Assembly: GCA_047967505.1 (NCBI GenBank)
Contig: CM106538.1
Origin: Dipteris shenzhenensis
Taxonomy: Eukaryota
DNA length: 64,000 bases
Direction: 5' to 3' (one strand)
In this document: positions 23,790 through 59,533 of the stretch, in pieces
Layout of the letters: each line of letters begins with the position of its first letter
How positions within the stretch are numbered: position 1 is the stretch's first letter
The notes under the pieces: model-generated
Databases searched by the model: none
The model's input: the letters and a program-made list of their open reading frames with translations, nothing else
What the model was told of the DNA's origin: nothing
Position numbers and translations under genes: made by a program

Positions 23790-26700
23790 ATGAAAAAAAC
23801 CTAAAATAATTTGCTTTACCAACTACAAGCAAATCAATGATCCTGAAAACTACTACAAAGTGCTATGTATTATGTTCTTTCCAAATCACGATCTTGAGCC
23901 AACACTTAATGAAAGTACCCCTACATGGCATGATATGTACAATGACAACAAACATATCATAGACCCAAACAAGGAAAAATTCAACAAGCTTATTCCCAAA
24001 TTTTCTATAAATTTAACAAGTACCTCTAATACTTCCATCCTCAAGTAATCAATATACATTCAGAAACATTGATACATATGACATTGGAATCAACATGCCA
24101 AATCCAAAAAAACCAAATCAAATCCATAATGGATCCTTACTAACCTACAAACTTGTGCCAAAAATTGAGTATTACATTACCTTTAAAAAACTCAACATTG
24201 AACAACACCTAATTTTGGAATACGTCATGATAAAAAAAAGAATCAATCCAGCAAAACGGTTCCATCTTTTCTCTGTCAGGGAATGTTAGAATAGGTAAAA
24301 ATTTTACACTAACGGCCATGGTTCAAGCCCTTCTAAGGAATTACTCACACAAACAAAGATACAATATGGAATTTCCAAAAGTTCTTTTACTAGCTTACAC
24401 TGACAAAACTGCATTCAATATTGTTGGCACAACAATACATTCAGCTTTGCATTTACCACTAATAGCATCCCACTATGCAAGTCTTTCCAGAGAAAAGTTG
24501 CAAGAACTATCGCAATTGTACAGGGACCTTCAACTAGCTGTTTGTTATGAAGTCTCCCTCATTGGTCATAGTACATTAATTGCAGCAGATATGCATCTAT
24601 GGCAAATCAAGCACAACCACTTCCAACCATTTGGAGGACTTGATGTTCTCTTACGTGGGGATCTATGCCAAGCTATCCCAACAAAAGATTCATGGATTTT
24701 CGTGGAGCAATCAACAAACACATCACCGATGACATCTTTTTGGAAAGATAATGTCTTACTCTATGACACAATAAGGACCAGGCAATACACATTGATTGAC
24801 ATCTCCTACACAAATGAACACTACTTAAGAAAACCATTGCAAAAACAAAATATTCCCCCCTTCTACACTAATGCTGGAAAAAATACCCCATGCTGTCAGC
24901 CATATGTAATCTTGAACCTTGCAAAGCCAAAGGTGATCAACTTTGGCAATCTCTATGGACAACCTTTGAAGGTATTAAAAGCCAAATTGTCTTCTCTGGC
25001 AAAGGGGCTTTTATGTCACTAGACTCAATTTTGATCTCTATTATACTTAAGGAGGCTGTTCTCTATGATGGAGAGTTTGCTATGGCTTCTGAGCTCTTCA
25101 AGAAAGGACTGCAGTGTTGGGGTCAGCTATGGAGCAGAGATGAGGTCAGGTGGAAAACGTGGATAGAGATTAGGAGGGAGTTTAGATTAAATAATCAAAA
25201 CTAGATGTTGATCATGAACAGAATCCACCTCTCAGAGGGCAATCAGCAATGGAAAGGTGGATCTTTTTTGGTCTACAGCAAAAAGTTCAGTTACTTCCTT
25301 CTTCCCTAATCCTACCCCTGCCAAGGGTATAGGGGATCTTTTCATCGTCCTTAAACTAGATGGAAACTGCAGGATTCTAGGGGCAATTGGAAATTCAGAT
25401 TCTGTAGCATCTGGTCAAGCTCAATCCTTGAGAAAATGTATGCCCTGCTTTGGCTAATAATGCAAAAGTTGTTTGGACCAACAGTAGAGGACTGAGAATT
25501 GGAAAGGGAAATGGCAAGTGCAAGAGATGTCCCTCTGTAGAGGAAGATGTCTTCCACCTCTTTGTTGCCTATCCAGCTACTAGAAAGGTTTGGGAAATAG
25601 TTCAATATGAAACAGGAGAGCCCATCAATTGGAAAGCTATTCTGTTAGGGGACTCCTCAAAGACAAAGCAAGAGATATGGGCACCCATTAGAGCACATGC
25701 ACTATGGTTTACTTGGATAGCCAGAAATAATTTTCAATTTGACCAACTTGAGTTGCATGCTGATAAACTTTATCTCAATTGGATGCACAGGACCAAACGA
25801 AAATTGTAGAACTCAGTTCAGATCTGATGCTGCCCTATTTAATGCTTATCTTCAAGACCATGTACAAAGATGCTTTGCGATGGACAACACTACCCCCTTT
25901 GAAATCCCTGCTGAATTTACTTATTTTCTTAAGTAGATCCAGCCTCCAACTGTGAAGAAGGAAACAGGTTCACAGAGCGAAGCTCATGTTGCTACCTCAG
26001 ATGACTCTGACAATACTGGGGACTCATCTGATATGTGTTTCAGATACTCTAACTACTTTATTGATGATGGTATAGATGATACAGATGATTCACTAGTACC
26101 CACCTTTTAATTTTGCCTATGGACAAACTCATAAGTTTCCAAAAATTTTAGGTTTTGTCATAAGTATATTGCTGAAGAAACTTCTCCCCATGGGGGTTGG
26201 CTTTTCTACTCTAAAGACTATGTACTGATATAATATATTATAAACTTTTTTCTACCCAAAAAATAAAGACATTCACAACAAAGAAGTGTAAGTGTTTGAC
26301 TATCCATATATATTGACAAAAGACACAAGACATGCAACAAAACCATAACAATACCAACAAATCCAAAAGACAAAGCAAGCTTGCACAAAGCACTACATTT
26401 GAAACTAGGAATGATTATTGAAGTTTGCTCTAGCAACTTGGACATTCTTGATGGGTTGGTGATTGGTGCAGATTGGATATTCAAACACTCAGACACAACC
26501 ATAGAACCCCATGTTGCTTGGGTTTTGTTTAACAACAAAAACATAAGAAGACAAGCTCGCTTCAATAACTCATCTCTTCACAATGACAACATTCCATCCG
26601 CCTAGACTCTAATACATCCAATTACAAAAGAATTTCGAATAGGCAAGAACAACTTGAACACAATTTCCTGATGCCAATTTCCCATACAACCCGCTGTAGC

Positions 26701-29342: not shown

Positions 29343-31101
29343 TGGAAGCACATAAGCATACCTTTCCTTCAGGTCGCACAAAGCTCCATGAGAATTATTA
29401 AATGCTCACAATTTGGTTCTAATTGCAAGTGGAGCTTCAACGTCGCACCAAGGGTGCATGTCTAGCCTTGTGTGCACAAGGCCTAAGAGCGATTTCACAA
29501 GCTTCCATTGAAACCCTGCACATTGTTACTTCACAACATGATTTTACCTAGTTCTTGGAAGCAAACCTGTGTGCGTTGCACATTCTTGTGTCACCACTGC
29601 ACCTTCTCCAGAATTCAAAAATGGACAAGTGTGGTGGGTGAGGATGGGAGCATGTTGAACAAGGCAAGCCCTTCACGCCACTTCTTGTATTGTGAGGATG
29701 GGTGCTATGTGGCAAGCCCTTCACGCCACTTCTTGTATTGTCTCTTCCTTCTTCAAAGACCTCATTTTTAGGAGCTTTGTGAAGGTGACATGTGTAGAGA
29801 GAGCACATTGAGTTCTAGAGAGTAGTATGGGTTTCAGTTTTTGCTATGCATTCACATAGAGCAGACAAAAATCTAACTTCGCCCGTCTACCAATCATCTG
29901 CTGCCACCTTGCAATTTTGATTTTTCTTGTTCACCCACTTGTAAAAGGCATGGTTTTGTAGGCATGTGTTTCGAGTGGTTGTTCTGTGTCCACGGCGATG
30001 ATGTTTGCAGATGCTTGTTGCGAAACCTACCTACGTCATCTCCACAAGAGTTTTGATCTTGACCAATGAATCAAAACTCTTTTTTAATTCTAAATAGGAC
30101 ACTACACACGAACCAGCTAACCATCTAGTCTACACACTACACACTAACCAGCTAGTCTACACTAAAACTAGCTACAAACAAAGTCGTATTTACATGAAAC
30201 CAATCATGCCGGTGACATCGACCAAAACACCAAATGGCCTAGTTAAAATTGTCAAAAAAGTACCAAAAGACCCCATGGAGTGTACCTTGTGCAATGTGGA
30301 GAGCAGGGAGGAAGGCAAAGCGACGTGCTGCTTTTCACAGGCAGCGTTCAGAGATGGCATTCAATCACCGAATGTGCAGGTTGCAAGCATGCGGGTGCGG
30401 AAATGCCCGACTGGAGAGACCCAATTCGCGTCTGCAGAGGGGCGAATTGACGACAGAGACGGGCGTGGCATAGATGGGGGGAAAGGTGCATGCATGATGC
30501 ATTTTTGCCCATGTCTAGGGAATGGAGTCTTAGAAAACAAGTGGCCAAGCATTCTAGTGTCGAACTCAAAACTGAGGCAACCAACCACCAAGTCAGGGTG
30601 GCAGGAATGTTGGCTGGGGGAGGGGGGGAATGGTGTGTCAGGGTCGATTCCGTGGGGAACAGCTTCGGAGGGGGAAGATTAGAGGTGGGAATGGGGGGTC
30701 TGAATCTATTCTAAGGCTAGTAATACGTAGAGAGGGAGGCAGCGCTCTTTCATCGCCATCGCCATCGCCATCGCCATCGCCATAGCCAGCTCTTCTTCAT
30801 TCTCCTTCATTCAGACCAACGCCCTGCCTCGTCTTCACTCCGATGCGATGCCTGCAACTCCGTAGCAGCAGCTGCTGCTTCTCCTTGCTTTGCTTTATTG
30901 CTTTCTGCTGCCATCGCCGCCCTCTCACGGGTTTCCCCTTCCCTTTCTTCTCCTCTTCCCCATCCCTCTCCCTCCTTTCCTCCCCTCCCTCCCCAGGCTT
31001 TTCCTCCCTTCCCTCCCAACGATTTGGTTTCTTGCCCTTTCCTCTCGGACTCCCTCCCTCACGGTCATGAGTGACAACCACTCCCTTGCTTCCCCCCCAC
31101 A

Positions 31102-33115
31102 ATGCCTCTTGCCGAATTCCGCATCCGCCCTTCTCCTTGCCGGAAATTCTACCTCCTATTCATCTTGCTCTGCCAGCTCGCCTGGATTGTGCCTTCCACA
31201 TTTTTCTTCCTCATCCAGGCCTCCACGCCCAGAATCGTCATTCTCCAGTCTTCCGAGTCGCAAGGCCCTAACGCCACGATCAGCTCGCAAGGTTTCGCCG
31301 GACCTGTCCGTGTTTTTGGCGTCGGAGAGCTCGATACGGTGAACAGGATCTACGAGGAATGGGAGAGCTTCTGGCCAGCAATGAGGGACCGGCTTCTCGC
31401 GAGAGGCTTTGTGGAGCCTTCGGGAAAGACCTGCTTCATATGGCTTGAAGAGTGCTACGCCTTGGCAAAACACGAAGGAATGCTAGACGTGAGCTTCCCA
31501 TGACTCGATTCTCGTTTTATGGTATGTTCCGTCGAAGCGCCCTCTCTAACTGGTTCCTGTGATTTCTCCTCCAGATTGTTACTGCTATTATCGGGCCGAG
31601 GGTTTTGCTATACGGGATGACGGTCTGGCGGGGGCGTAACGAGATTTTGCAGCGGTTTCACAGGGATCTCGAGGTCGTTGGCTGTCCCAAATCTTTGAAC
31701 GTGGTGCTGGGTGCCAGCGTGCAGTTCATGACCCAGTCCCACAAGATTCCCGAGCGATCGCTCCAGCTGCTGTTGCGCAATATGCAAGCGTTGGAGGAGG
31801 AATCGCTGGGGATTTCGAGCCCCAGAGAACGAGCTGCGTTCGTAGAAAGGGTAAGAGGAGGTAGGAGCGTGTGTTCCATTATCAGCTTGCGATCGGTGAT
31901 CAATCGAGTGATTGACGATATCCGTTTTTGGTGCAGTCTTTTGGAACGAGGGTTAAGAGGATGATCAGGACCCCCGACATCCGATTGGCAACCCTGGAGG
32001 GGCGGGAGGGAGAGGCCGTGTTCTTGGAGGGCAGGACGACGTACCGTGTAGGCGAAGCTTCCGGGACGAAGAAGGCTATGCTCTTGCAATTCATCTCGGC
32101 GGATTGCAATCTACGCGATCCACGCAACCTGGCGTGGGGATCTAACGGGTTGGATAAGAGCGTTCTCATGCCGCCTGCCCTGCTGGTGTCCGGGGATCGC
32201 ACGTCGCTCAAGGCGTCCAACGATGTTCGTCTGGGGCTGGTTAAGGCGGAAGCGTGGAAGATTACAGCCAGCGGAGGCCTGGTTCTGGACGGAAGAGAGG
32301 AGGGGCAAGGGGACGACATCAGGAGCTACAGGTCGGACCTGTTTCGGAGTGTTACGGTATTTCCGAGGCCCAATGAAACAGTAGCGGCATGGCAGGAGGT
32401 GGGGAAATGGAGGTCCCAGGAGTTGGGAGTGTTGTCGACATCGGTGCTGGCGGGGGGTAGGATAGAGCAATTCTATCTGGCGAGGGCGGAGGGGGCGGAG
32501 CGGGTGGAATTCCGGAAGGCAGAAGGGGATCGAGTGATAGTGGTGGTGCGTGGAGAGATGCTCTACTTCCGAGCTAGCAAAGATGGAGCTGGAGCTGGCG
32601 ATGGCGATGGAGATGGGCTTAGCTTCTGTGAGCTGCTGGAGCTGAAACCAGGGAGCGCAGTGCGCTTGAACGAGAATCTGCTCCACGCGCTGGTGCCTTC
32701 GGGGCCAGGGGTGGCCTTCGTCTCCTTCCGCTGGGCTGGCTATGGCGATGAAAAGCTTGGAGCAGAAGAGCTTGATCATCAAACTGGGTATGGCGATGGC
32801 GACGACAAGCTTCGACCGTTCACAGAAGCCACGGATGGTCGCACCATCTCCCTGTCCAGCGGGCAGGCCTACGACCCGGATAACGATGAGAATTGCGACG
32901 TTGTCGTGATCATAGTGGACGGTCACCTCCTACAGATCCTCCCCTCCAAAGAGACAGCGCAGGCACCGGATGTGTTGCTCATCCCTGCCGGCGAATCTTG
33001 TGTGCTCTGGAACGTCGGCGGTCCTTCTGTCCGATTCTTCGCCATGCACCTCTGCCGATTCAACGGCACTGCCCAAATCTCCACCTCATTCGGAGCAAGC
33101 GGAAAGGTTTTCTGA
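31102..33115 (+). CDS. 613-aa protein: hydrophobic N-terminus, PhyH-like Fe(II)/2OG dioxygenase domain, cupin-like C-terminus; exons 31102-31488, 31575-31850, 31937-33115
   Basis: Two 86-nt phase-0 GT-AG introns (GAC|GTGAGC..CTAAC..TCCAG|ATT and AGG|GTAAGA..TGCAG|TCT) join three ORF-track ORFs with no stop. Motifs: GFAGPVRVF, LAKHEGMLDIVTAIIGPRVLLYG, FHRD, VQFMTQSH, EGEAVFLEGRTTY, VIVVVRGE..LKPGSAVRLNENLLHAL. Confidence 0.85.
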
Positions 33116-35299
33116 TGAGAGAGACGACTTTCACTTCCAGCCACTCTCTTCTTTCCGGCTTTCGTCATTGGGTTCCTCACATTTCTTGGATGCGCTGGAC
33201 CCTGGAGTCTGTACCATGATTTTGCGACACGAACATTAACTATTCTTCGCTCTTCTGCGATTTCGAGAAGCTTCCGCTCTCCAGTAATGCACAGAGACCG
33301 GCAACTCAGAAGCTCCAAGCTGAACGAAGATTTCAAGATCCACACCATTTTTTCAGTGTAAACAGGTTTCTATGTAGTGCACAGTCAGAGTTTGATGTTT
33401 CTGGCTCTCAAAACAACAATGGAGACAAGCTTTAAGAATTTGTCATTAGGCGCCACCGAATTGGTAAGGCGATGTTGTGCGGCCTGGCTATGCCCAATTT
33501 AGTACTTCCGATTTCGTTTAAGCCAAACTGGATGGAGAGATTGGACAATTTCTGATGCTTTCCAGTTGGTTGCAGATCTTTTCTATGCATCTTACTTTGT
33601 ATAAGTCCTTGAGCATTTGAATTTGCAGTGGACGATTGCTAGAGGGTTGGTTCCCAATGTACAATTACGTTACTTCTTAACATTTATTGCCCCTGCAAAG
33701 CGAGGGATGTGATGAACTAAGAATCCCGTCCTTATGCCGAAGGGATCCCTGTGGAGATCTTCGTATATTATTTCTGATCCCTCGCCTGCCTTTATTTTTT
33801 CTAAACAAAACTTTCCAGGTGACAGTTTGGAGAAAACGTTGCTTAATATTTCAGTTTTTGGTTACCATTTTGGCAATTTTACTACTTGCCATGACAAAAA
33901 CGTTAGGGGGTGTAAGAACAACCGTTAACCAGCCAAGGAACGCCCACGTTCTCGGAACTTATTCTCTGGCGTTCTGCTATCTGAGAAAAAGCCAAAAGAG
34001 TATCGAATGGTACCCAGCTTCCTTCTCTCAGCCCCTATTTTAGCCCCCCCTCCTCTCAGCCCCAGCCCCCGCCAGCCTCTTCTAAGCTCTCAGTCCCTTC
34101 TCTTCTGCAACAAAATTTGCAGCCCTTTTGCTTCATTTTTTTAATCTATAGCTACTATGATGTATCATCCATGATTCCATCCTTGGACCTCATGGCATTA
34201 TGCGCATTGCAAACATCTTCATCAATGTACTTTTTATTATGTGTTTTAAAAAGTTTAAAGCTGAAATGGAAAGTTAAAACTGAATTTGTTTTCCTATTCT
34301 GGTACATTTCCATGTGCTTTGATTATGTATCACGAGCTCTTTACAAAAGAGGGGAAATACATGGGTGCACAATTTATGAGGATGGCATCCGTATGGATCC
34401 AAAAAACAGTTAAGGCTATTCTTCAATGGCCTTATCTCAGAATTGTTGAAGGTTTACTTGGGATTATCTGGCTTTTCAGAGGGTTCATAAAAGATTATGC
34501 CAAAAGTTGATGATTGGATGACGGAGCAGCTTAACGGGAAGGAAAGACCTTTACCTGGCAAGAGGTCGAAAGTTCTGACGCGTTATAGCCCCTGCACTAA
34601 TGTTAAATGTGACAGATCCGAATCTACCATTGTGGTGGAAGTGGATGCAAGTGACTTTGCTGTGGGAGCAGTGCTGATCCAGGGAGACGGCCAGTAGCTT
34701 TCAAAAGTGAAAATGTAGACTCAGCACTACAAAAGTTGTTCAGCCTATGAAAATGGAGGTTTTGCCTATTATCCGTGCTTTCAAGGCATGGAGGGACTGT
34801 TTATAAATGGTTCTAAATTTGAGATCCTCATGCATTAGGAAAGTATCAAATGGTTGTGTAACCAAATTTAGTTAAATGGTTGTGTATGAAGACTTTGTAT
34901 AAATGGATGCTCAAGTATGTGTGGGTGTGTGGATTTGTATGTGTGAGAGCATACTTTTATACTATGCTCTACACCCACTGTTGGGCGCTGATGACGTCAG
35001 TGGGGATGTCATAGTAGCTAGTCCCTGCTATGCATGATGGAGTTTATGGTTCTCAATCTTATGAGTGACAACTGCACATGCAAATTTCACCTTGTGAAGT
35101 TTTAGTCCAAGTTGCGGCCTGTTGGTATTGGGATAATTCTTTCTATCTTAAATGATGAGTTGCCCTACCAGCTAGATTTAGATTTAGATGCTCGTTTGGG
35201 AGAGACTAAAATGAAATCGTTTAGACTTCACAAGCAGTTGTAGCTTGAATGAAGAGATTTGGACTATTTGATTAGCCTTCTCCTTTAGTGCTAGCCTTC

Positions 35300-38200
35300 T
35301 GTTGAGATTGACATCTCCAGGCCTCCACAGGGCGCGCTCCTGCACCCCACCAGCTCCCACGCGACAGGGCCGAAGCAGGGGGACAGAGGGGGTAGACCAG
35401 GCCGACCAGCCCCTGGCCGACCAGCTGGTCGGCCCAGTTGGCTGACCGACCAGCTGGTCGGTCTAGGCCAACTAGACCGACCCTCTACCCTGGCCTTCCC
35501 TATATAAGGGCCCTCCCCCTCCTCATTTCACTCACCCACTCCAGCAGCTCCTCAGGGCTTCAGTTATTGCCTGCTCCTGGCCGTCCCTACCTGAGCCCCT
35601 TAGCTGCCCTGTTGGCTGCCCACGCTCCCTCTGCAGATCCCTCATTCTTTTCCAGGCTCCTCCTGCCTCCTCGCTCCAGGCTCCTCCAGTCTCCTTGTTC
35701 CCAGGCTCCTGCCTCTTCGCTCTAGGCTCCTCCAGCCTCCTCGTTCCCAGGCTCCTGCCTCCTCGCTCCAGGCTCCTCCAGCCTCCTCGTTCCCAGGCTC
35801 CTGCCTTCTCGCTCCAGGCTCCTCCAGCCTCCGTGCTCTCAGGCTCCAGCCTCCTTGTGCCCCTATCCTCTGCTCCAGTTCAGCCCCTTCTGCAGCTCCT
35901 GTTTCTCATCCTGTTCAGGACTCCTTGTATTACAGTTGCTGCCCTGGTTTATGGGCTGAGTTACAGCAGATCTGTTTGTGGCACATCTTGTTGTCTCTAG
36001 TGTTCTCTGTGTGATTCTGTAGCTTCAGTTTGCTTACATCTTCCGCTGCCACTTTTAACATGGTATCAGAGCACCAGAATACTCTCTGATCTTGGAGCTC
36101 CTGTATTGATGAAGTTGAAGGAGCTTGTCCTCGTCGGCAACTCTCTTTCCCGCTGACTACAGAGCTCTCTTCTTCCCCTTTTTTTTTTTTTTTTTGCTGC
36201 CTTTCTCTTGTCGGCAGCCCCGTTCTAGATTTCGATCTGCTCACCAGCACCTATTCTCCTGGTCGGCTGTTCTCTTCAGCCCCTGGTTGCTGTCCACTCC
36301 CTGGTTTCAGTCATGGCTGCTGAAACAAAGGATTCTGCTCCGGATCTTCGCGTTCCCCCTATGTCCAGCTTCTTTCAAGAGTCTGACAAGCCTGTACGCA
36401 TCCCCACTCTTCCTACATTTCCAGATGCTCGGCAGTTAGATGGGACCAACTATTCACTTTGGAAAATTCAGATGGCATCTGTATTGATCTTGCCGAGTTT
36501 GTTGATCCTGGGATCCCTCGTCCGTCTCCTGAGGAGGATCCACATGCTTCTCTTATCTGGGACAAATTGAATGCTCGTGTGCGCTCGTTCATCTTTCTCA
36601 ATTGTCAACCAGGGGTTCTCAATCATATCAAGCACCTTACTTCTGCACGTGCTATTTGGGAATTTCTTGATGGCATGTACCTTCGCGTCACTCCCATGAA
36701 ACGTATCTCCTTGGAAGTTCAGCTTCGTCGCCTCGATCCGGCTACTTCCTCTTCCATACGGGACCACATCAATAAAATGCAGAGCATGCATCAGGACATC
36801 CTCCATGCAGGCAAGGCTATCTCCTCCGAAGATATGGCTATTACTCTCTTATCTCATGTTATTGCTGACAGTCGATACGCCGCATTCTATTCTTCTCTTA
36901 TTACCTCTGGCCGCCTCAGCACCATCACTTGGGAGGAACTTGTCCCCATGATGATGGATCAGGAGGAACAGTTCATTAAATCCTCTGATGGCCCTTCTGA
37001 GGCTCTTGTGGCCCACCATCCCAATCTTTATCTCTTTCATGAAGGACAGCTTCATACCTTCATCATTCTTTATGTGGATGATCTGATTCTTAGTGGGAGT
37101 CATACCAATCATATCCTTGCCATTAAAGTTGCTCTTCAAACTGAATTTGAGATGACGGATATGGGCCTCCTCCATTTTTTCTTGGGTCTCGAGATTTGGC
37201 AGACCAAGAGGGGGTATTTTGTCTCTCAGCAGCGCTATGTTCACGAGCTCCTCGAAACTTTCCACATGGCTGACTGTCGGCCCATCACTTCTCCCATGGA
37301 TCCCAACTCTAAACTCTCTGCTTCTGGGTCCACTGCTTATCCTGATGCCTCCCTCTACCGCCAGCTTGTTGGTTCTCTTATCTGGCTACTTAACACTCGA
37401 CTGGATCTCGGCTTCTCTGTCGGCATCCTCAGTACCTTTATGCAAACCCCTTCGCTTTCTCATTGGCAGGCTGCTCGACGTCTCCTCCGCTATCTTCAGG
37501 GGACCTCTACTTTCGGGCTCCTATATACTGCCGGTGGCTCCTCTCCTTCCCCGCTCACTCTCCGAGGTTGGAGTGACTCTGATTGGGCTGGCGACCCCGA
37601 TTCTCGCCGCTCTACCACGGGCTATGTTTTCTCCTTTGGCTCTGCGGCTATCTCCTGGTCCAGTAAACGACAACCCACGGTCGCCCTATCCTCCACCGAG
37701 GCTGAGTATCGTGCTATGTGTAGTGCCACCTCTGAGGCTGTGTGGCTTCGGCGCCTTCTTCTCGATTGTGGTTTTCAGCAACACGCTCCTACCACACTTT
37801 TTTGTGACAATCAAAGCTGTATCGTCCTTGCTCGCAATCCGGTCTTCCATGCTCGGACAAAACACATCGAAATTCAGTACCACTACACTCGGGAGAAGGT
37901 TCTTGACGGTACCATTTTGCTCCTCTTTAGCACCACTACCGACAACGTCGCCGACATTTTCACCAAACCTGTTTCCTCTCCCCTTCTCCAGTGTCAGGGC
38001 TTCAGTTATTGCCTGCTCCTGGCCGTCCCTACCTGAGCCCCTTAGCTGCCCTGTTGGCTGCCCACGCTCCCTCTGTAGATCCCTCATTCTTTTCCAGGCT
38101 CCTCCTGCCTCCTCGCTCCAGGCTCCTCCAGTCTCCTTGTTCCCAGGCTCCTGCCTCTTCGCTCCAGGCTCCTCCAGCCTCCTCGTTCCCAAGCTCCTGC

Positions 38201-53006: not shown

Positions 53007-56000
53007 TGTCATGTGCACGGATTGGTATCTGACGTGTACTAGGTACACAGGACTAGCTCAGGTAGCCTGGGGAGGCTTAGAGCTAGGCAGGCTTGATTCT
53101 CGGGTTGAGTGGCAAGGGTACGAACTATTTATAGGTCTTCGCTATTTTTGGCTGCTAGGTCTGATCCTGGATTGAGTCGCGGACGTGGGCCTGCATCTTA
53201 GCATAGCCCAAGGCCCAGTGACAGATCCAGGGCTTCACAGCCCCACCTGGTGGTATGGGACACCAGGCTGGTTTGGATCTGATTGGGAGTTCGTGCCAGT
53301 AGCCCAGCTCGTGGCTCGGAGGGGACATCTCCTGATTCGGGATCACATCCCGTAGATGTCATGGTTGGGTGGTGAGCAGCCTGCTCAGTTTCTCACGTGG
53401 TGTGTGTTTGTTTGCAGATCAGAGGTTTCAGGAGTGCGGGGATGTGTCAGTTGGTATCAGAGCCAGCTCCTGAGGTAGGAATTTATGATGCGAAAATTTT
53501 TGACGATTTCTTCCTCCAAGTATGCCCTAAAATTCGAAATTTGCTGCTGCAAATTTTGCTTGGTTCTTGGGTTATCAGGGGTGGACAGGATGTAGGGAAA
53601 AGGTAGGAGAAAGAGAGAGTCTAGATTTCGAAATTCCTGAAGGATTACTGTGAGAAAGGGATGCGTGTAGCAGGGAGAGAGCAGAGAAGAAGGAAGGAGA
53701 GGTGATAGGGTAGCTGAGTTGCAGGCAAGCAGATAGTGACTGACGGGGCTGCGGTGGAGGCTGTGTTGGTGCGATGGCTGGTAGGATTTTTGGCCAGGGC
53801 AAGGGAAAGGTGCAAGGAGTAGGAACAGGGTGCGGCCACCCTGCGAGAGGTGTTGCTTTTTTCGAAAAAGCACCACCCTCCAAAGCTGGGAGGGTGAGCC
53901 TTTTTTGGAAGCAGGGCTTCCTAATTAGGCTGCCCTGTTCCCTATATAGTTGGACAGGGTTCCAGCCCCAACCATAGCCTTGCAAGGAGCCCTCTCTGCC
54001 CTACGAAGTGATTGCGCCATCGAGATTCGTGACAGCCAGCGCCGGGCCGGCCGTACAGCCTGTGTCATCGGCCGTACAGCTTACATCAGCACCGTACTGC
54101 CTACGTCAGCCACCGTACGCACACGTCAGCGACTGTACGGACTGCGTCAGCATCCGTACGGCTGCTGACGCAGCCGTACGGATCGCATCAGCATCCGTAC
54201 AGCCACATCAGCCATCCGTACAGCTGCGTCACCTGTACGGTCAGCAGGAGGGTACCGTACGGTACGGATTGCTGCAGAATTCCGTACGCTGCAGCCTGCA
54301 TCGAGTTCAGCCAGACTCCGGGATTTTTGCGCCTCCGGTTCGCCAGTTTTCAGCATCTCCTTTCGTCAGCATCTCTTGGGACGGTTTTCCTCTGCTCCAT
54401 TCTCCTTTCCGCTTCGATTCACTCAGTTATTTCTCTCAGTTTATATTCAAATCAGATTTCAGTTATGTCTGATTCTGCAAATCCCGAGTTCACCATGGGA
54501 GAGCAGGATTTGGATTACACTCCTGTGGGAGAGGAGGATCAGGGTCTTTATGATGACCTGATTATGAAAAAGGCCTTCAGTGAATTCACCACTGCTCTGG
54601 ATGGTAAATTCGAGCAGGTTAATGCGAATCAAACGGGGTTGACACAGCAACTCCAAGGGATTCAAGCGACTCTCACTCTTCTGGCTAGCACCGTGTAGGC
54701 ACTCACGCATGTGGATGCCATGGCTTCAGTGCTAGGCCCGAACATAACTCCAGACCCTTTTCCGGGAGGTCAAAAGTCTCGAACGAAGGAGGTAGTTGAC
54801 ACTTGGTTACACAAGTGGCAGGTACACTTTCAGTTCCACCCGTACCCAGATGAGAAGAAAATCCAGCTTGCAGCCGGTTTCATGTCAAGTAAAGCGTTGC
54901 TATGGTGGAAGGAACTCCAGCCTAAGCCAGATACATGGACAGATTTCGAAGGGGTCTTCAGGAAGGAGTTCCTGAAGAAGGAGGACGATTATGATATCGT
55001 TGGCAAATTTAAAGCCCTCGATATGTCAAAGCTAAACTTGTCCTTTGAAGTTTATCTTCAAAGATTTCGGGATCTGCAAACCAAGGCCACAAAGATGGAT
55101 CCAGTGACCTTGTTAGGTTTCTTCGTGGATGGTTTGCCAGATTCATACAAGTTGCAAATAAAGAACAACAAATGCACAACGTTGCAAGAGGCCATGAATT
55201 ATGCGCGTATTTATGATGATACCATGGCCGGTGCAAAAGCAACTACAGTTTCCGACACGAGTGGAAAGAACAAACGCAAGTTCTTTCAGCCTACGACTGG
55301 TACTGGGGAGACGAAGTCTACGGACAACGCCTCCAAGAAAAACCTGACTCAAGCAAAGAATGGTCAAGCCCGTTTCCTTCCCACATTGAAGCTCAAGAAA
55401 GGACGTTGCTTCTATTGCGAGGAGTGGGGCCACACTAAGAATGAGTGTCAAAGCGCAAGAATCACAAGTTGGTGCTTGGATCGAAGCTCCAGGCGGGTAC
55501 AGGTACCAAAGCCAAGGGAGCGAACCAAGTCTCGATGACAGGTATTTCTGTAAATGTCATTACCTGCCCACTTTCTTATAATTGCACTTTCAATACTTCG
55601 TTGTTTGGTTCCCGTGATCTTTTCTGAGTTTATGGAGAAGTTATGGACCAACACGTTCACATTCTCTTTGATCCGAGCAGCTCTCACAACTTTGTTAATT
55701 ACAAATTTGTGCAGAAGATGGGGCTGTCCACAGTACCTAGTGATCACACCTATGAGGTGCAGCTTCCAGCTGAGAGAAGCAGTTTTGGGATCGCAAGGTT
55801 GAAGCGCTTCCTATCCAGATTCAAGCTTACACAGGCGCTCTTACATGTTATGTTATGCACCTAGAGCATGTAGACTTGTTGATCGGAATAGAGTGGTTTA
55901 AAACCCACAATATTCAGATTGGATGGACGGAGCATACACTTTCTTTTGTAGATAAGGACACCCAATTTTGTATTCAGTGTGATAAAATTCCCTCTTCTCA

Positions 56001-59000
56001 GGGACCTATCGTATTTGCGATGTAGCTTCGGAATATATTAAACACTTCTCATTATGATGTCTATTAGTGTGTTTTGATTCCGCTTTCTTCATTTGTTGTC
56101 TCTGTAATAAACAAAAATGATTTAAGTGTGTTTGAACACCGTGAATTGAGAATGTTGTTAGATAGTTTTACGGATGTATTCCCTGCTCAACTGCCGGAAG
56201 GTTTACCTCCAGAACGGGCAGGCATAGACTTAGTCCCAGGGGCTCAACCTATCAGTGTACCACCTTATAGGATGAGCCAGGTAGAGGAGGATGAGTTAGC
56301 TTCACAACTTCAGGATTACCTGAATATGGGCTATATACGCCCAAGTAAATCACCTTGGGGTGCACCTATCCTCTTAAGAATCTACCTGGAGAATGTGTAT
56401 AGATTATAAACGATTAAATAAAGTGACAATTAAGAATCGATATCCTCTACCTCGTTCCGATGATTTGATAGACCGTTTGGCCGGAGCGAAGTATTTCACT
56501 AAGATTGATTTGCGTACGGGTTATCACCAAATCCGTATCTATGCTAAACACATAGATAGAACCGCATTCCGAACTAGGTATGGTCATTACGAGTTCCTCG
56601 TATTACCTTTTGGTTTGACCAATGCTCCTGCCACTTTTCAGCAGATGATGAACGATTTGTTTCGGGATTATCTGGGCAAATTTGTTGTAGTGTTCTTAGA
56701 TGACATCTTGGTATATAGTCGAACGCTTCAGGATCACATAGGACACCTCCGGATTGTCTTAGTTATTCTAAGACAGCATAAGCTCTATGCCAAGATGAGT
56801 AAATGTGACTTCTTTATGAAGGAGATCATTTACTTAGAACACAAGATTTCTTCTGAAGGTATTAGCATTGATCTGGATCGTATCCAGAAGGTTTTAGAAT
56901 GGCCTATCCCTCAGATTGTGAAACAACTTCGTTCTTTCCTAGGATTTACGGTATTTCTTCGGAAGTCTGTGCGTGATTATTCACATATCACGGCACCCTT
57001 GACAAACATATTGAAAGGTCACGGACGCAGGTCTACTCAATCAATCTCTTGGAATGATGCAATGAACAAGGCTTTTGAAACCTTGAAGTTCTCCATCAAG
57101 GAAGCACCCGTTCTTGCATTACCTGATCCTACCCGGCCTTATGTTTTAGAGGCCGATGCGAGTGATTATGCGATTGGGGCAGCTCTATTCCAAGAGTGCA
57201 GACCTGTAGCTTTCGAGAGTAAGAAGCTAGACGACACTCAATATCGTTGGCCCACACTCGAGAAGGAACTTTATGCTGTAGTGTATGCTCTTAAGGTTTG
57301 GAGACACTACTTGTATGGTTCAAAGTTCCTTGTATTGACTGATCATCAGTCAATTAAGTATGTGTGTGATGGATCAGAATTGAGGGGACGGAAAGCTAGA
57401 TGGGCAGAATTAATGCAGGATTTTGATTTTGAAATACGTTATCGTAAGGGTTCGTTGAATAGTGTGGCGGATGCCTTGAGTCGAGTTAAGTTTGTAAATG
57501 CTTTGTCATTTATGAAAATATCCTCGGACCTATTTCAATCCTTGAGAGGGCTATACGCAACTGATAGTCATTTTAGTTCTTATTGGCAGAGAGTCCAGGA
57601 TGGGAGCTCCATGGTTGACCAGGACTCAGGGATTGTGCCACCTACGGTACAGGCGGCGGGAGGTCAGTGTTCCGGAATGAAAAGATTTGTGTGCTAGATG
57701 TTCTGGACCTTAAATCCAAGATACTCTGGGAGTGTCATGATGCTCCTAGTGCTGGACATCCGGGTATACATAGGACTCTGTCTCTGGTGAAGCATACCTT
57801 TTATTGGCCTAAAATGCGTGCATTTATTGAGAACTATGTAGTAGGTTGCCGGGTTTGTCAAGTTACTAAGGCAGAACGCCTTGGAAGCGCGGGCTTATTA
57901 CAACCATTACAGATTCCAGGTAATAAATGGGAAAGTATTTCCATGGATTTTATTACTGGTTTGCCTCGAACGCGCAAGGGTCATGACTCCATTTGGGTCA
58001 TAGTCGACCATTTGACAAAAATGGCCAGGTTCTTACCTCCTAGAACAACTATTTCAGTTGTTTAGCTGGCTCACGAGTTTGTGGACCACTTGTTTAAGCT
58101 ATATGGTTTGCCATCTGACATAGTCAGTGACAGGGACTCAAAGTTTACAAGTAACTTTTGGACACTTGTTTTTGAGAAGTTAGAAACTACTCTAAGTATG
58201 AGTTCCTCGGATCATGCACAATTCGATGGCAGTACAGAGAAGGTTAACCAGTTGGTTGAAGACATGCTTCGGGCATATGTATCTAAGAGACAGTCTTCAT
58301 GGGAGGATTATCTACCTATGATTGAATTTGCTTACAACACTGCAAAGCATTCTAGTACTGGTTACAGTCCTTTTATGCTCATGTACGGGTTTCAACCTAA
58401 GTCACCAGTTATGGTTGGATTAAAAGGGATTCAAAATGATGTTGCTGAGAACTTCTTGCTAGACATGCAGGAAATGTTGCAGTTTGCCAAGGAGTCTATT
58501 AGAAGTGCCCAAGATCGGGACAGATTTTATGCTAATAGACATCGTTCACCCAGAGAGTTCTCTGAAGGAACGATGGTATATTTGCGAATTCCTAAGGAAT
58601 CCAAGAGCCTAAGTACTGGTTTGGTTCCAAAATTATCCCCCAGATACTGTGGCCCATTCAAGGTCATTAAAAGAATTGGACCAGTTGCATATCGACTAGA
58701 ATTGCCTCTTGATGTTAAAGTCCATCCAGTCTTTCATGTCAGTAGACTGAAAGAAGTTTTGGGTGCGGATGATCAACTTGTTTCTCCTCACGAGATAATA
58801 GAAGTTACAGATTTGACTTTTATTCCGCACGAACCTGAGTGTATTCTTGAATTTCGTGACAGACAGATTCGCAATCGATCTATCACAGAATACAAGATCA
58901 AGTGGAAGGATCGTGTTGAGGAGGATGCAACATGGGAGACATTACAAAACCTCCAAAGAACATTTCCGGGTTTTTTAGCGAACTCAGGAGTGAGTTCTTA

Positions 59001-59533
59001 GAGGAGGGGGAGTATGTCGTGCACGGATTGGTATCTGACGTGTACTAGGTACACAGGACTAGCTCAGGTAGCCTGGGGAGGCTTAGAGCTAGGCAGGCTT
59101 GATTCTCAGGTTGAGTGGCAAGGGTACGAACTATTTATAGGTCTTCGCTATTTTTGGCGCTCGGGGCTCGAGTCTATAAAAGGGGCCCAGGGGGTTCAGT
59201 TCTCAGTGTGCAGTTGGGAGCAAGTTTCGTTCCCAGGTGCTAGGTCTGATCCTAGATTGAGTCGCGGACGCGCGCCTGCATCTTAGCATAGCCCAAGGCC
59301 CAGTGACAGATCCAGGGCTTCACAGCGCCACCTGGTGGTATGGGACACCAGGCTGGTTTGGATCTGATTGGGAGTTCGTGCCAGTAGCCCAGCTCGTGGC
59401 TCGGAGGGGACATCTCCCTGATTCGGGATCACATCCCGTAGATGTCATGGTTGGGTGGTGAGCAGCCTGCTCAGTTTCTCACGTGGTGTGTTTGTTTGCA
59501 GATCAGAGGTTTTAGGAGTGCGGGGATGTGTCA
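53007..59533 (+). mobile_element. Full-length Ty3/gypsy chromovirus with TSD TATAG
   Basis: TG..CA LTRs at 53007-53449 and 59015-59533; TATAG at 53002-53006 and 59534-59538; PBS TGGTATCAGAGCC at 53452; PPT AGAGGAGGGGGAG at 59000-59012. Confidence 0.97.
54465..59001 (+). pseudogene. Chromovirus gag-pol (gag, PR, RT, RNase H, INT, chromodomain) with several stops and frameshifts
   Basis: CFYCEEWGHTKNEC; ILFDPSSSHNF; CIDYKRLN, FGLTNAPATF, FLDDIL; DASDYAIGA; ECHDAPSAGH, ISMDFITGLP, SDRDSKF, GPF; YKIKWKD..DATWE. Confidence 0.95.

Follow-up and report, generated by a model that had tools for sequence, protein, structure and literature searches.

Does a patch of fern DNA rich in guanine and cytosine (GC), lying among the remains of transposons, hold a gene of its own, and is the product of this gene an oxygenase of bacterial ancestry? 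The question is raised by positions 31,102 to 33,115 of a stretch of 64,000 nucleotides (nt) from contig CM106538.1 of the Dipteris shenzhenensis assembly GCA_047967505.1. This whole stretch of analysed DNA is hereafter referred to as the window. Three open reading frames (ORFs) in it had been joined, in a first-pass annotation made from the letters alone, into a gene for a membrane-anchored dioxygenase similar to the PhyH family and to the halogenase SyrB2, fused to a cupin region and possibly acquired from bacteria. Here, we found that the locus is an intact, spliced gene, the model of which is exact to the base. With a probability of roughly 0.6, we take it to be a constrained, single-copy gene of a fern-type vascular plant, vertically inherited, which would encode an extracytosolic, anchored PhyH-like pseudo-oxygenase or non-canonical enzyme joined to a double cupin (bicupin).

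The spliced gene and its relatives in vascular plants

The joined coding sequence (CDS) has 1842 nt and is translated into 613 amino acids (aa), with a single stop codon, located at its end. The three exons are separated by two phase-0 introns of 86 nt each, and the coordinates that the first-pass annotation had given for them are exact. The length of 86 nt is not divisible by three, and the frame read through without splicing ends after 133 aa. For comparison, we used contigs from X1 and X2, two small public runs from two studies, each of which has 0.67 of the sampled words of 31000-33300. Over 30700-33600 these contigs are about 99% identical to the window and carry the joints 31488>31575 and 31849/50>31936/37, both with GT..AG ends. 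The proposed junctions 31488/31575 and 31850/31937 are seen in contigs of both runs, the kind of which ('RNA?') is assigned by guess. The spliced contigs start at 30795 in X2 and at 30841 in X1. The gene is composed of the following parts:

30795 to 31101, + strand: 5' untranslated region (UTR), minimum extent from the starts of the X2 and X1 spliced contigs; CT-rich, with upstream ATGs
31102 to 31488, + strand: coding part of exon 1, 129 codons, residues 1-129, with the ATG, the predicted signal anchor and the start of the PhyH-like domain; the N-termini of homologues align
31489 to 31574, + strand: intron 1, 86 nt, GTGAGC..CAG, phase 0; skipped in X1 and X2 contigs
31575 to 31850, + strand: exon 2, 92 codons, residues 130-221, with the core of the PhyH-like domain, including H158-R-D160 (31659-31667) and QSH (31734-31742)
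31851 to 31936, + strand: intron 2, 86 nt, GTAAGA..CAG, phase 0; skipped in X1 and X2 contigs
31937 to 33115, + strand: coding part of exon 3, 392 codons, residues 222-613, followed by the stop codon TGA
33116 to 33600, + strand: 3' UTR, minimum extent; X1 and X2 contigs continue beyond 33600

The exon products are collinear from end to end with homologues of about 600 aa, and the alignment has no gap at either junction. Because spliced contigs from two studies and gapless, collinear homologues agree, the gene model stands well beyond chance. The GC content at third codon positions of the joined CDS is 0.67.

Nine differences separate the CDS of the window from the X1 and X2 contigs; by manual classification, six are synonymous and three are non-synonymous. 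With 448 synonymous and 1391 non-synonymous sites, the ratio of non-synonymous to synonymous differences per site (pN/pS) is about 0.16, a value that comes from small counts and from two pooled contig sets. Between the same contigs and the window, the UTRs have several-fold more differences per base than the CDS. Two substitutions, T265R and R587Q (at 32067 and 33033 in the CDS), separate both runs from the window, and X1 has a deletion of 20 nt in the 5' leader, at window position 30995. These differences suggest allelic variation or variation between close species. The leader also contains an ATG at 31067, which opens an out-of-frame ORF of 92 codons (31067-31342, + strand) that overlaps the main start at 31102 and, from its position, could affect translation of the main ORF. 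Further upstream ATGs are found at 30843 and 30848. A tblastn search of the window with the 613-aa protein found no second copy of the gene.

Relatives of the protein were found in several groups of vascular plants. A word-indexed search with the product of exon 3 returned 8 proteins with an expectation value (E) of 1e-3 or less, from 1.3e-123 to 7.2e-77; they have 382 to 654 aa and identities of 41-54%, and none of the eight has a precomputed Pfam domain. When 1.84 billion representatives were searched exhaustively with phmmer, 16 matches at E<=1e-3 were obtained, of which 14 are members of the same family or fragments of members. The bacterial repeat proteins P0023 and P0024 were rejected as relatives; they match only residues 213-254 of the query, at the low-complexity insert GAGAGDGDGDG. 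When a profile of the family was used in the word-indexed search, all 11 proteins found at E<=10 came from the family. Overall, the E-values of family members range from 1e-123 to 2e-15.

Ten clusters of these proteins were looked up, and the seven that have names are all called 'hypothetical' or 'uncharacterized'. They come from the ferns and lycophytes Ceratopteris richardii, Adiantum capillus-veneris, Diphasiastrum complanatum and Selaginella moellendorffii, from the conifers Cryptomeria japonica and Taxus chinensis, and from Nymphaea colorata, the only angiosperm in which a member was found. This near absence bears out the earlier remark that the architecture was not recognised as that of an angiosperm family. 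The single-sequence search of the 1.84 billion representatives found no member in bryophytes, algae, fungi, other angiosperms or bacteria. KP509_26G052300 and KP509_01G038700 of Ceratopteris, LOC9644925 of Selaginella, LOC131033664 of Cryptomeria and LOC116267241 of Nymphaea are 32-44% identical to the exon 3 product. Such uncharacterised vascular-plant proteins are collinear with the window protein over their full length and share its anchor, its cysteines and its cupin-2 motifs; none has an assigned function, a Pfam domain or a paper. Judged by these alignments, the window gene is a member of an uncharacterised family whose members occur in ferns, lycophytes, conifers and Nymphaea.

A maximum-likelihood tree was made from 19 rows, leaving out the isoforms P0012, P0015 and P0027 and the fragments P0018, P0020, P0022, P0026, P0034 and P0035. 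The lycophyte clade and the fern clade are starred, the latter with 13 rows and support values of 100/100. The seed-plant clade, at 94/95, is slightly below the star threshold, and Nymphaea lies on a long branch. The window protein branches early in the fern clade, ahead of the duplication that gave rise to two paralogues each in Adiantum and Ceratopteris. As the tree follows the phylogeny of the plants, the family appears to be old and vertically inherited within vascular plants. Full-text searches of the literature gave nothing on the family or on an architecture of PhyH and cupin, and lists of transferred genes in papers on plant genomes could still mention the family. The 'bicupins' that appear in passages of a hornwort genome paper are ordinary Cupin_1 storage-type proteins, unrelated to this family (PMC7027989).

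Predicted architecture of the protein

The protein could be described as composed of a signal anchor, a PhyH-type domain (residues ~61-307) into which a helical hairpin would be inserted, a variable linker, and a bicupin (residues ~379-594). The corresponding features are listed here:

31147 to 31215, + strand: hydrophobic segment, residues 16-38 (FYLLFILLCQLAWIVPSTFFFLI), a putative signal anchor or uncleaved signal peptide (Kyte-Doolittle)
31282 to 32194, + strand: predicted PhyH-like double-stranded beta-helix domain, residues ~61-307, with both introns inside the span (P0021 model, Foldseek, hhalign)
32408 to 32740, + strand: predicted cupin barrel 1, residues ~379-489, with the insert GAGAGDGDGDG (32585-32617) (P0006 model, Foldseek, alignment)
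32837 to 33055, + strand: predicted cupin barrel 2, residues ~522-594, with GQAYDPDNDENCDV (32861-32902) and PAGESCVLWN (32984-33013) (P0006 model, Foldseek)

Pfam assigned no family to the three exon products at E<=10, and none of six full-length homologues gave a PhyH hit. We used AlphaFold2 to model P0021, a natural N-terminal fragment from the family, with a 20-row family alignment that included exons 1 and 2 of the window as input. The model has a mean predicted local distance difference test score (pLDDT) of 87.7 and a predicted template modelling score (pTM) of 0.86. A Foldseek search of the Protein Data Bank (PDB) with this model gave 203 matches at E<=0.001. The best match is GriE (5nch), with an E of 1.7e-7 and a template modelling score (TM) of 0.53. 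The other leading matches are the proline hydroxylase H11, ThoJ, EvdO1, the halogenase domain of CurA, AviO1, SnoN/SnoK, SptF, AndA, PtlH and EctD.

These structural matches were connected to the PhyH family by sequence. As a reference, we took P0036 (L001:2471-3301), a bacterial gene that is annotated as PhyH and has a Pfam match to PF05721 with an E of 9.8e-26. A profile of P0036 and five relatives finds, by sequence, ten of the Foldseek entries (6zyk, 5epa, 5ep9, 5nch, 7dt0, 7dzz, 6ec3, 2rdn/2rdq, 4xaa and 3emr), and also SyrB2, CytC3 and human PHYH. In hhalign, the plant family aligned to P0036 alone with a probability of 92.4% (E 5.1e-7, 100 columns) and to the six-sequence PhyH profile with a probability of 93.4% (E 2.4e-7, 192 columns). 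This alignment places FHRD of the family on WHQD, the strand with VQL..SH on that with PGSH, and a column of Tyr, Phe or His on the distal His. Conversely, the family profile picks standalone bacterial PhyH genes, with per-genome E-values of about 1e-4 to 1e-5 and always over positions 44-157. In the window protein, GFAGP corresponds to residues 64-68, HRD to 158-160 and QSH to 183-185, and GEAVF is also present.

By these remote methods, a PhyH-type fold of the N-terminal domain is supported. The predicted fold is the same as that of the PhyH family (PF05721), which includes GriE, EctD, PtlH, SnoK/SnoN and human PHYH, and the motifs are collinear with those of PhyH enzymes: GY/GF..P, LIGP..L, WHxD/FHRD, PGSH/QSH and a G-x-hydrophobic strand. 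However, several differences can be noticed. The plant family falls below all Pfam thresholds, and in the models of homologues a hairpin of two helices is inserted between strands. Further features of the plant family are a membrane anchor at the N-terminus, four cysteines that do not vary and the bicupin to which the domain is fused. Soluble PhyH enzymes typically lack such a hairpin, anchor, cysteines or bicupin.

The C-terminal half was modelled in P0006, a full-length homologue, from a 21-row alignment (pLDDT 70, pTM 0.62). The model has beta-barrels at residues ~373-474 and 507-587, with linkers of low confidence between them. The top Foldseek matches in the PDB are bicupins, namely MncA (2vqa, E 4e-9), the oxalate decarboxylase OxdC and the 11S/7S globulins (E-values up to 1e-7), and further matches include 3-hydroxyanthranilate dioxygenase and gentisate dioxygenase. 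For the bicupins the TM values are low, at 0.31-0.37 of the target. No Pfam cupin was found in the exon 3 product of the window. Three of the six homologues have cupin hits below threshold at one or the other barrel (Cupin_2 with E-values of 0.081 and 0.093, Cupin_1 with 0.08 and Cupin_6 with 0.061, against cut-offs of 22-27 bits). Two consecutive cupin barrels in the C-terminal half are supported by this model, and the same arrangement of barrels is seen in MncA, OxdC, the 7S/11S globulins and 3-hydroxyanthranilate dioxygenase.

Cupin 2 is the best-conserved part of the family. Its motifs GQAYDPxN, CDV and PxGxxCxLWN hardly vary between lycophytes and Nymphaea, and the window protein reads DPDNDENCD and PAGESCVLWN at these places, the Cys of the latter being C576. 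The pattern PxGxxCxxxN resembles motif 2 of the bicupins. Classical cupins bind their metal through HxH...E in motif 1 and a His in motif 2. In cupin 2 of the family, the positions of His, His and Glu are occupied by a variable residue, a variable residue and Asp, by comparison with these classical motifs, and the position of the motif 2 His is Cys in all 19 rows; cupin 1 retains one His, in the string HAL. Judged from these residues, neither barrel has a standard metal site. The family thus differs from the enzymatic cupins, with their His/His/Glu/His ligands. The 7S/11S globulins, which are non-enzymatic and have no metal site, are closer to it in this respect.

Two repetitive stretches of the coding sequence lie in or near the cupin region. 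The microsatellite at 32585-32617 encodes a loop insert of cupin 1 that is missing from the homologues; it causes a spike of 352x in depth, loose ends and breaks in the contigs of X1 and X2. A stretch of GDGD-rich codons is found near 32780-32800.

The N-terminus of the window protein is hydrophobic, with a 19-residue Kyte-Doolittle maximum of 2.15 within residues 16-38, and it is preceded by R7, R9, R14 and K15. A hydrophobic N-terminus is common to all full-length rows of the family alignment. Five cysteines are invariant (106, 113, 161, 273 and 567 in the numbering of P0006), four of which lie in the first domain. Two more positions of P0006 are mostly Cys, 532 in 17 of 19 rows and 585 in 14 of 18. 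Sequons of the type N-x-S/T recur at four alignment columns, and the window protein has them at N57, N367 and N597. Because of the anchor, the four invariant cysteines of the first domain and the recurrent sequons, we infer an extracytosolic placement. The product would be a type II anchored or secreted protein of the secretory pathway or the apoplast, with disulfide bonds and glycosylation.

The architecture proposed in the first-pass annotation is thus largely retained. All the PhyH-like and cupin motif strings that it listed are present in the translation, the anchor lies at residues 16-38 (Kyte-Doolittle mean 2.15), the PhyH-type fold and motif order are upheld by the P0021 Foldseek matches and by the hhalign probability of 93.4%, and the double cupin agrees with the bicupin matches of the P0006 model. 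As a check, the annotation had proposed searches for PhyH or cupin matches by profile and by structure; no Pfam model reached its cut-off, and the structural matches were obtained for the homologues P0021 and P0006.

The residues of the iron site and a possible bacterial connection

Fe(II)/2-oxoglutarate (2OG) oxygenases bind iron with a triad formed by HxD/E and a distal His. The window protein has H158-R-D160, and Tyr257 (32042-32044) occupies the column of the distal His (hhalign, residue table). Lys266 aligns with an Arg that is invariant in the bacterial PhyH alignment (R203 of P0036). The Arg after the distal His is said to bind the C5 carboxylate of 2OG. This column is not conserved in the plant family and holds Arg in only a few fern rows. 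A full triad was found in none of the 18 family proteins that cover both motif regions. HxD is combined with Tyr or Phe in ten of them, HRN with His in two and HRH with Phe in one, and the remaining five (two Diphasiastrum isoforms, two Selaginella copies and Nymphaea) have no His in the aligned column; a shift of the alignment by one position could give H-Y-E in Diphasiastrum. Of the 19 rows compared at the distal column, 13 have Tyr, 4 have Phe and 2 have His. Since no full triad is found among the 18 proteins and the distal column is mostly Tyr or Phe, the family is unlikely to carry out canonical Fe(II)/2OG chemistry.

The paralogues of Polypodiales differ at these positions. One clade has HRN with a distal His and the other HRD or HRH with Phe (P0010, P0011 and P0021 versus P0006, P0009, P0013 and P0025 in the family alignment), which means that, after the duplication in Polypodiales, both halves of the former iron site have changed, each in the opposite way.

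The protein had been read in the first-pass annotation as an active dioxygenase or halogenase, and this part of the claim is not supported, in view of Tyr257, of Lys266, of the lack of a full triad in all 18 proteins and of HRD in place of HxA/G. SyrB2, CytC3 and the halogenase of CurA belong to the same PhyH fold class as the first domain; the CurA domain is among the top structural matches, and the bacterial PhyH profile also picks up SyrB2 and CytC3. Iron halogenases have HxA/G instead of HxD/E and keep the distal His. The window protein differs from them, with Asp160 where Ala or Gly is needed and Tyr at the position of the distal His, and a SyrB2-type halogenase was rejected as a candidate.

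A broader form of this idea, in which the protein is an active, membrane-anchored Fe(II)/2OG hydroxylase or SyrB2-like halogenase of the endoplasmic reticulum or Golgi, with the cupins as substrate-binding or second catalytic modules, is in our estimate unlikely. The PhyH-type fold and the matching motif order agree with it, but the window and 13 of the 19 rows have Tyr in the distal column, and the two rows that have His there have HRN at the other motif. H158-x-D160 is kept in the window and in 10 of the 18 family members; Selaginella and Nymphaea, however, have no first His as aligned, and the window has Lys at the position of the Arg. Purifying selection acts on the coding sequence, a point in favour of this idea, yet conservation is strongest in cupin 2 and not at the PhyH site. 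The plant prolyl 4-hydroxylases, which are type II anchored 2OG oxygenases, provide a precedent for the topology.

By the reading that we prefer, the protein would no longer work as a canonical Fe(II)/2OG oxygenase. It would probably act through the conserved pocket of cupin 2 (GQAYDPxN..CDV..PxGxxCxLWN), either as a ligand-binding protein, that is, a pseudoenzyme, or as an enzyme of non-canonical chemistry.

A bacterial connection was suggested in the first-pass annotation by a likeness to bacterial PhyH-cupin fusions. Part of this likeness was recovered. In the ESM Atlas, the clusters closest to P0006, with a score of 0.94, are three that contain only bacterial proteins (50, 51 and 144 members of 516-560 aa); all of their members have PhyH and all have Cupin_2, and 161-165 of 256 features are shared. 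This number is below the 170 shared features that are typical of hits within a family, and matches in the ESM Atlas are leads, among which a row from another domain of life is no sign of transfer. The exon 3 product of the window finds the same three clusters with a score of 0.83, rated as a lead only. The bacterial proteins, with PhyH and Cupin_2 (AraC-like ligand-binding), have the same domain content as the plant protein and a length near that of the plant protein minus its anchor. The comparison with them was one of language-model features, and they are presumably cytosolic.

In the sequence searches, no bacterial protein was found to align beyond the PhyH core. The family profile had matches at E<=0.01 in 8 of 401 Pseudomonadota genomes, six in the PhyH part and two in the cupin part, and no match lies in a fused frame. 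The two matches in the cupin part, a SpoIIE/response-regulator protein (a chance match) and a Cupin_8 protein, were rejected as relatives. In one class, 115 of 401 genomes contain matches to PF05721, and no frame of 480-620 aa is present among the 150 matches listed, to which 85 further ones add. None of five longer relatives of the bacterial PhyH protein P0036 has a cupin. A pattern scan of GTDB gave 35 matches, none of which encodes a relative, and a tblastn search of 72,556 plasmids with P0006 gave five records, all at non-significant E-values of 7-9, one of them in the PhyH gene that served as the reference P0036. The similarity to bacterial proteins is limited to the generic PhyH core.

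Because orthologues are found in ferns, lycophytes, conifers and the water lily, any transfer would be older than the split between lycophytes and euphyllophytes. Recent acquisition by this genome was rejected, as the gene tree follows the phylogeny of the plants, and for the same reason nothing marks the copy in this genome as acquired. The horizontal acquisition that the first-pass annotation thought possible is not supported as a demonstrated or recent event, in view of the orthologues in four plant groups and of a gene tree that mirrors the plant tree. The annotation had also named orthologues across green plants, branching with eukaryotic PhyH proteins, as the pattern that would speak against a bacterial source; orthologues are present in vascular plants, and the single-sequence search found none beyond them.

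An ancient transfer is another matter. A bacterial PhyH-bicupin fusion may have passed once to the ancestor of vascular plants, gained introns and an anchor, and lost its catalytic ligands, a scenario that we regard as doubtful. The nearest ESM Atlas clusters are bacterial PhyH+Cupin_2 proteins (0.94 for P0006, 0.83 for exon 3), but their shared features stay below 170 and such feature matches are leads only. No relative was found outside vascular plants among the 1.84 billion representatives, which fits an arrival in their ancestor; on the other side, no fused PhyH-cupin frame was met in the genomes, plasmids or PhyH relatives that were searched. The family profile recognises bacterial PhyH genes, but only over the generic PhyH core, and the gene tree has the branching order of the plants. 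Bacterial transfer is thus possible, as a minority hypothesis. In its full form, it would have a bacterial fusion enter more than 400 million years ago, be retargeted to the secretory pathway, lose its iron triad, persist as a binding protein or non-canonical enzyme and be lost by most flowering plants; this course of events is improbable, on our assessment.

Weighing of the evidence, surrounding DNA and meaning

Several observations weigh against the reading of the locus as a vertically inherited, anchored pseudo-oxygenase or non-canonical enzyme with a bicupin. No Pfam model is reached at cut-off by the exon products or by the six homologues, and the family profile has no match among PDB sequences at E<=10. 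Since these sequence searches in Pfam and the PDB were empty, the fold assignments draw on structure prediction, a single profile-profile comparison (93%) and language-model features. The structure models are those of the homologues P0006 (about 50% identity) and P0021 and not of the window's own protein. In Foldseek, the first domain reaches modest TM values of 0.5-0.58 and the bicupin values of about 0.35, with high root mean square deviations. The suggested localisation and glycosylation come from sequence features and not from a dedicated predictor. The kind of X1 and X2, 'RNA?', is only a guess, and contig cover is absent at 32434-32478, a segment that is nevertheless in frame and alignable to the homologues. 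The locus has no operon-like context, and full-text searches gave no paper on the family. Finally, H158-x-D160 is conserved in ferns and conifers, which is odd for a site without function, and a further residue close to H158 and D160 could make up a complete metal site. Because HxD persists in these groups, a non-canonical metal site stays possible.

The surroundings of the gene agree with the earlier description of a GC-rich island among transposon remnants. The GC content is 0.52-0.53 at 30-34 kb and 0.33-0.50 in the rest of the window, and the gene is flanked by fragments of retroelements and of a PIF1-type helicase:

280 to 1776 and 36387 to 38036: copia-type fragments, with gag, zinc knuckle, integrase and reverse transcriptase (RVT_2)
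24234 to 25022: PIF1-helicase-like piece, which could belong to a Helitron
54699 to 59001: Ty3-type element, with gag, reverse transcriptase-RNaseH and chromodomain integrase

Nine further ORFs that adjoin the gene or are antisense to it have no Pfam family. One of them, an ORF of 272 aa antisense to exon 3 (32111-32929, - strand), probably results from the GC-rich codons used by the gene on the sense strand. A repeat of the HRHRHR type is located near 30740-30790.

That the frame is non-functional, as a decaying pseudogene, a frame captured by a transposon, or an artefact of assembly or contamination, is very improbable: the flanking retroelement fragments, the coding microsatellite insert at 32585-32617 and the upstream ATGs of the leader would fit such an origin, but the frame of 613 codons is unbroken over two splices with spliced contigs in two studies, pN/pS is about 0.16 with more divergent UTRs, the protein is collinear over its full length with homologues of four plant lineages, the window has no second copy, and the frame has no transposon domains.

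Throughout the history of vascular plants the family has been conserved, and it evolves under purifying selection; even so, it has neither a Pfam domain nor a name. Its identification as PhyH-like with a bicupin would give a structural identity to proteins that are listed as 'hypothetical', and it provides a testable hypothesis, that of an extracytosolic pseudo-oxygenase, or of a non-canonical enzyme with its main pocket in cupin 2. For genome annotation, the locus is an example of a real gene in repeat-rich DNA that is missed by libraries of hidden Markov models. Outside the family, this architecture is met only in rare bacterial fusions, as seen in language-model features, which raises the question of an ancient gene transfer; if such a transfer took place, the family would be a protein specific to vascular plants, of bacterial ancestry and unrecognised by any domain database. 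With members in ferns, lycophytes, conifers and Nymphaea and none found in other angiosperms, the family is a candidate marker of a biology that most flowering plants have lost.

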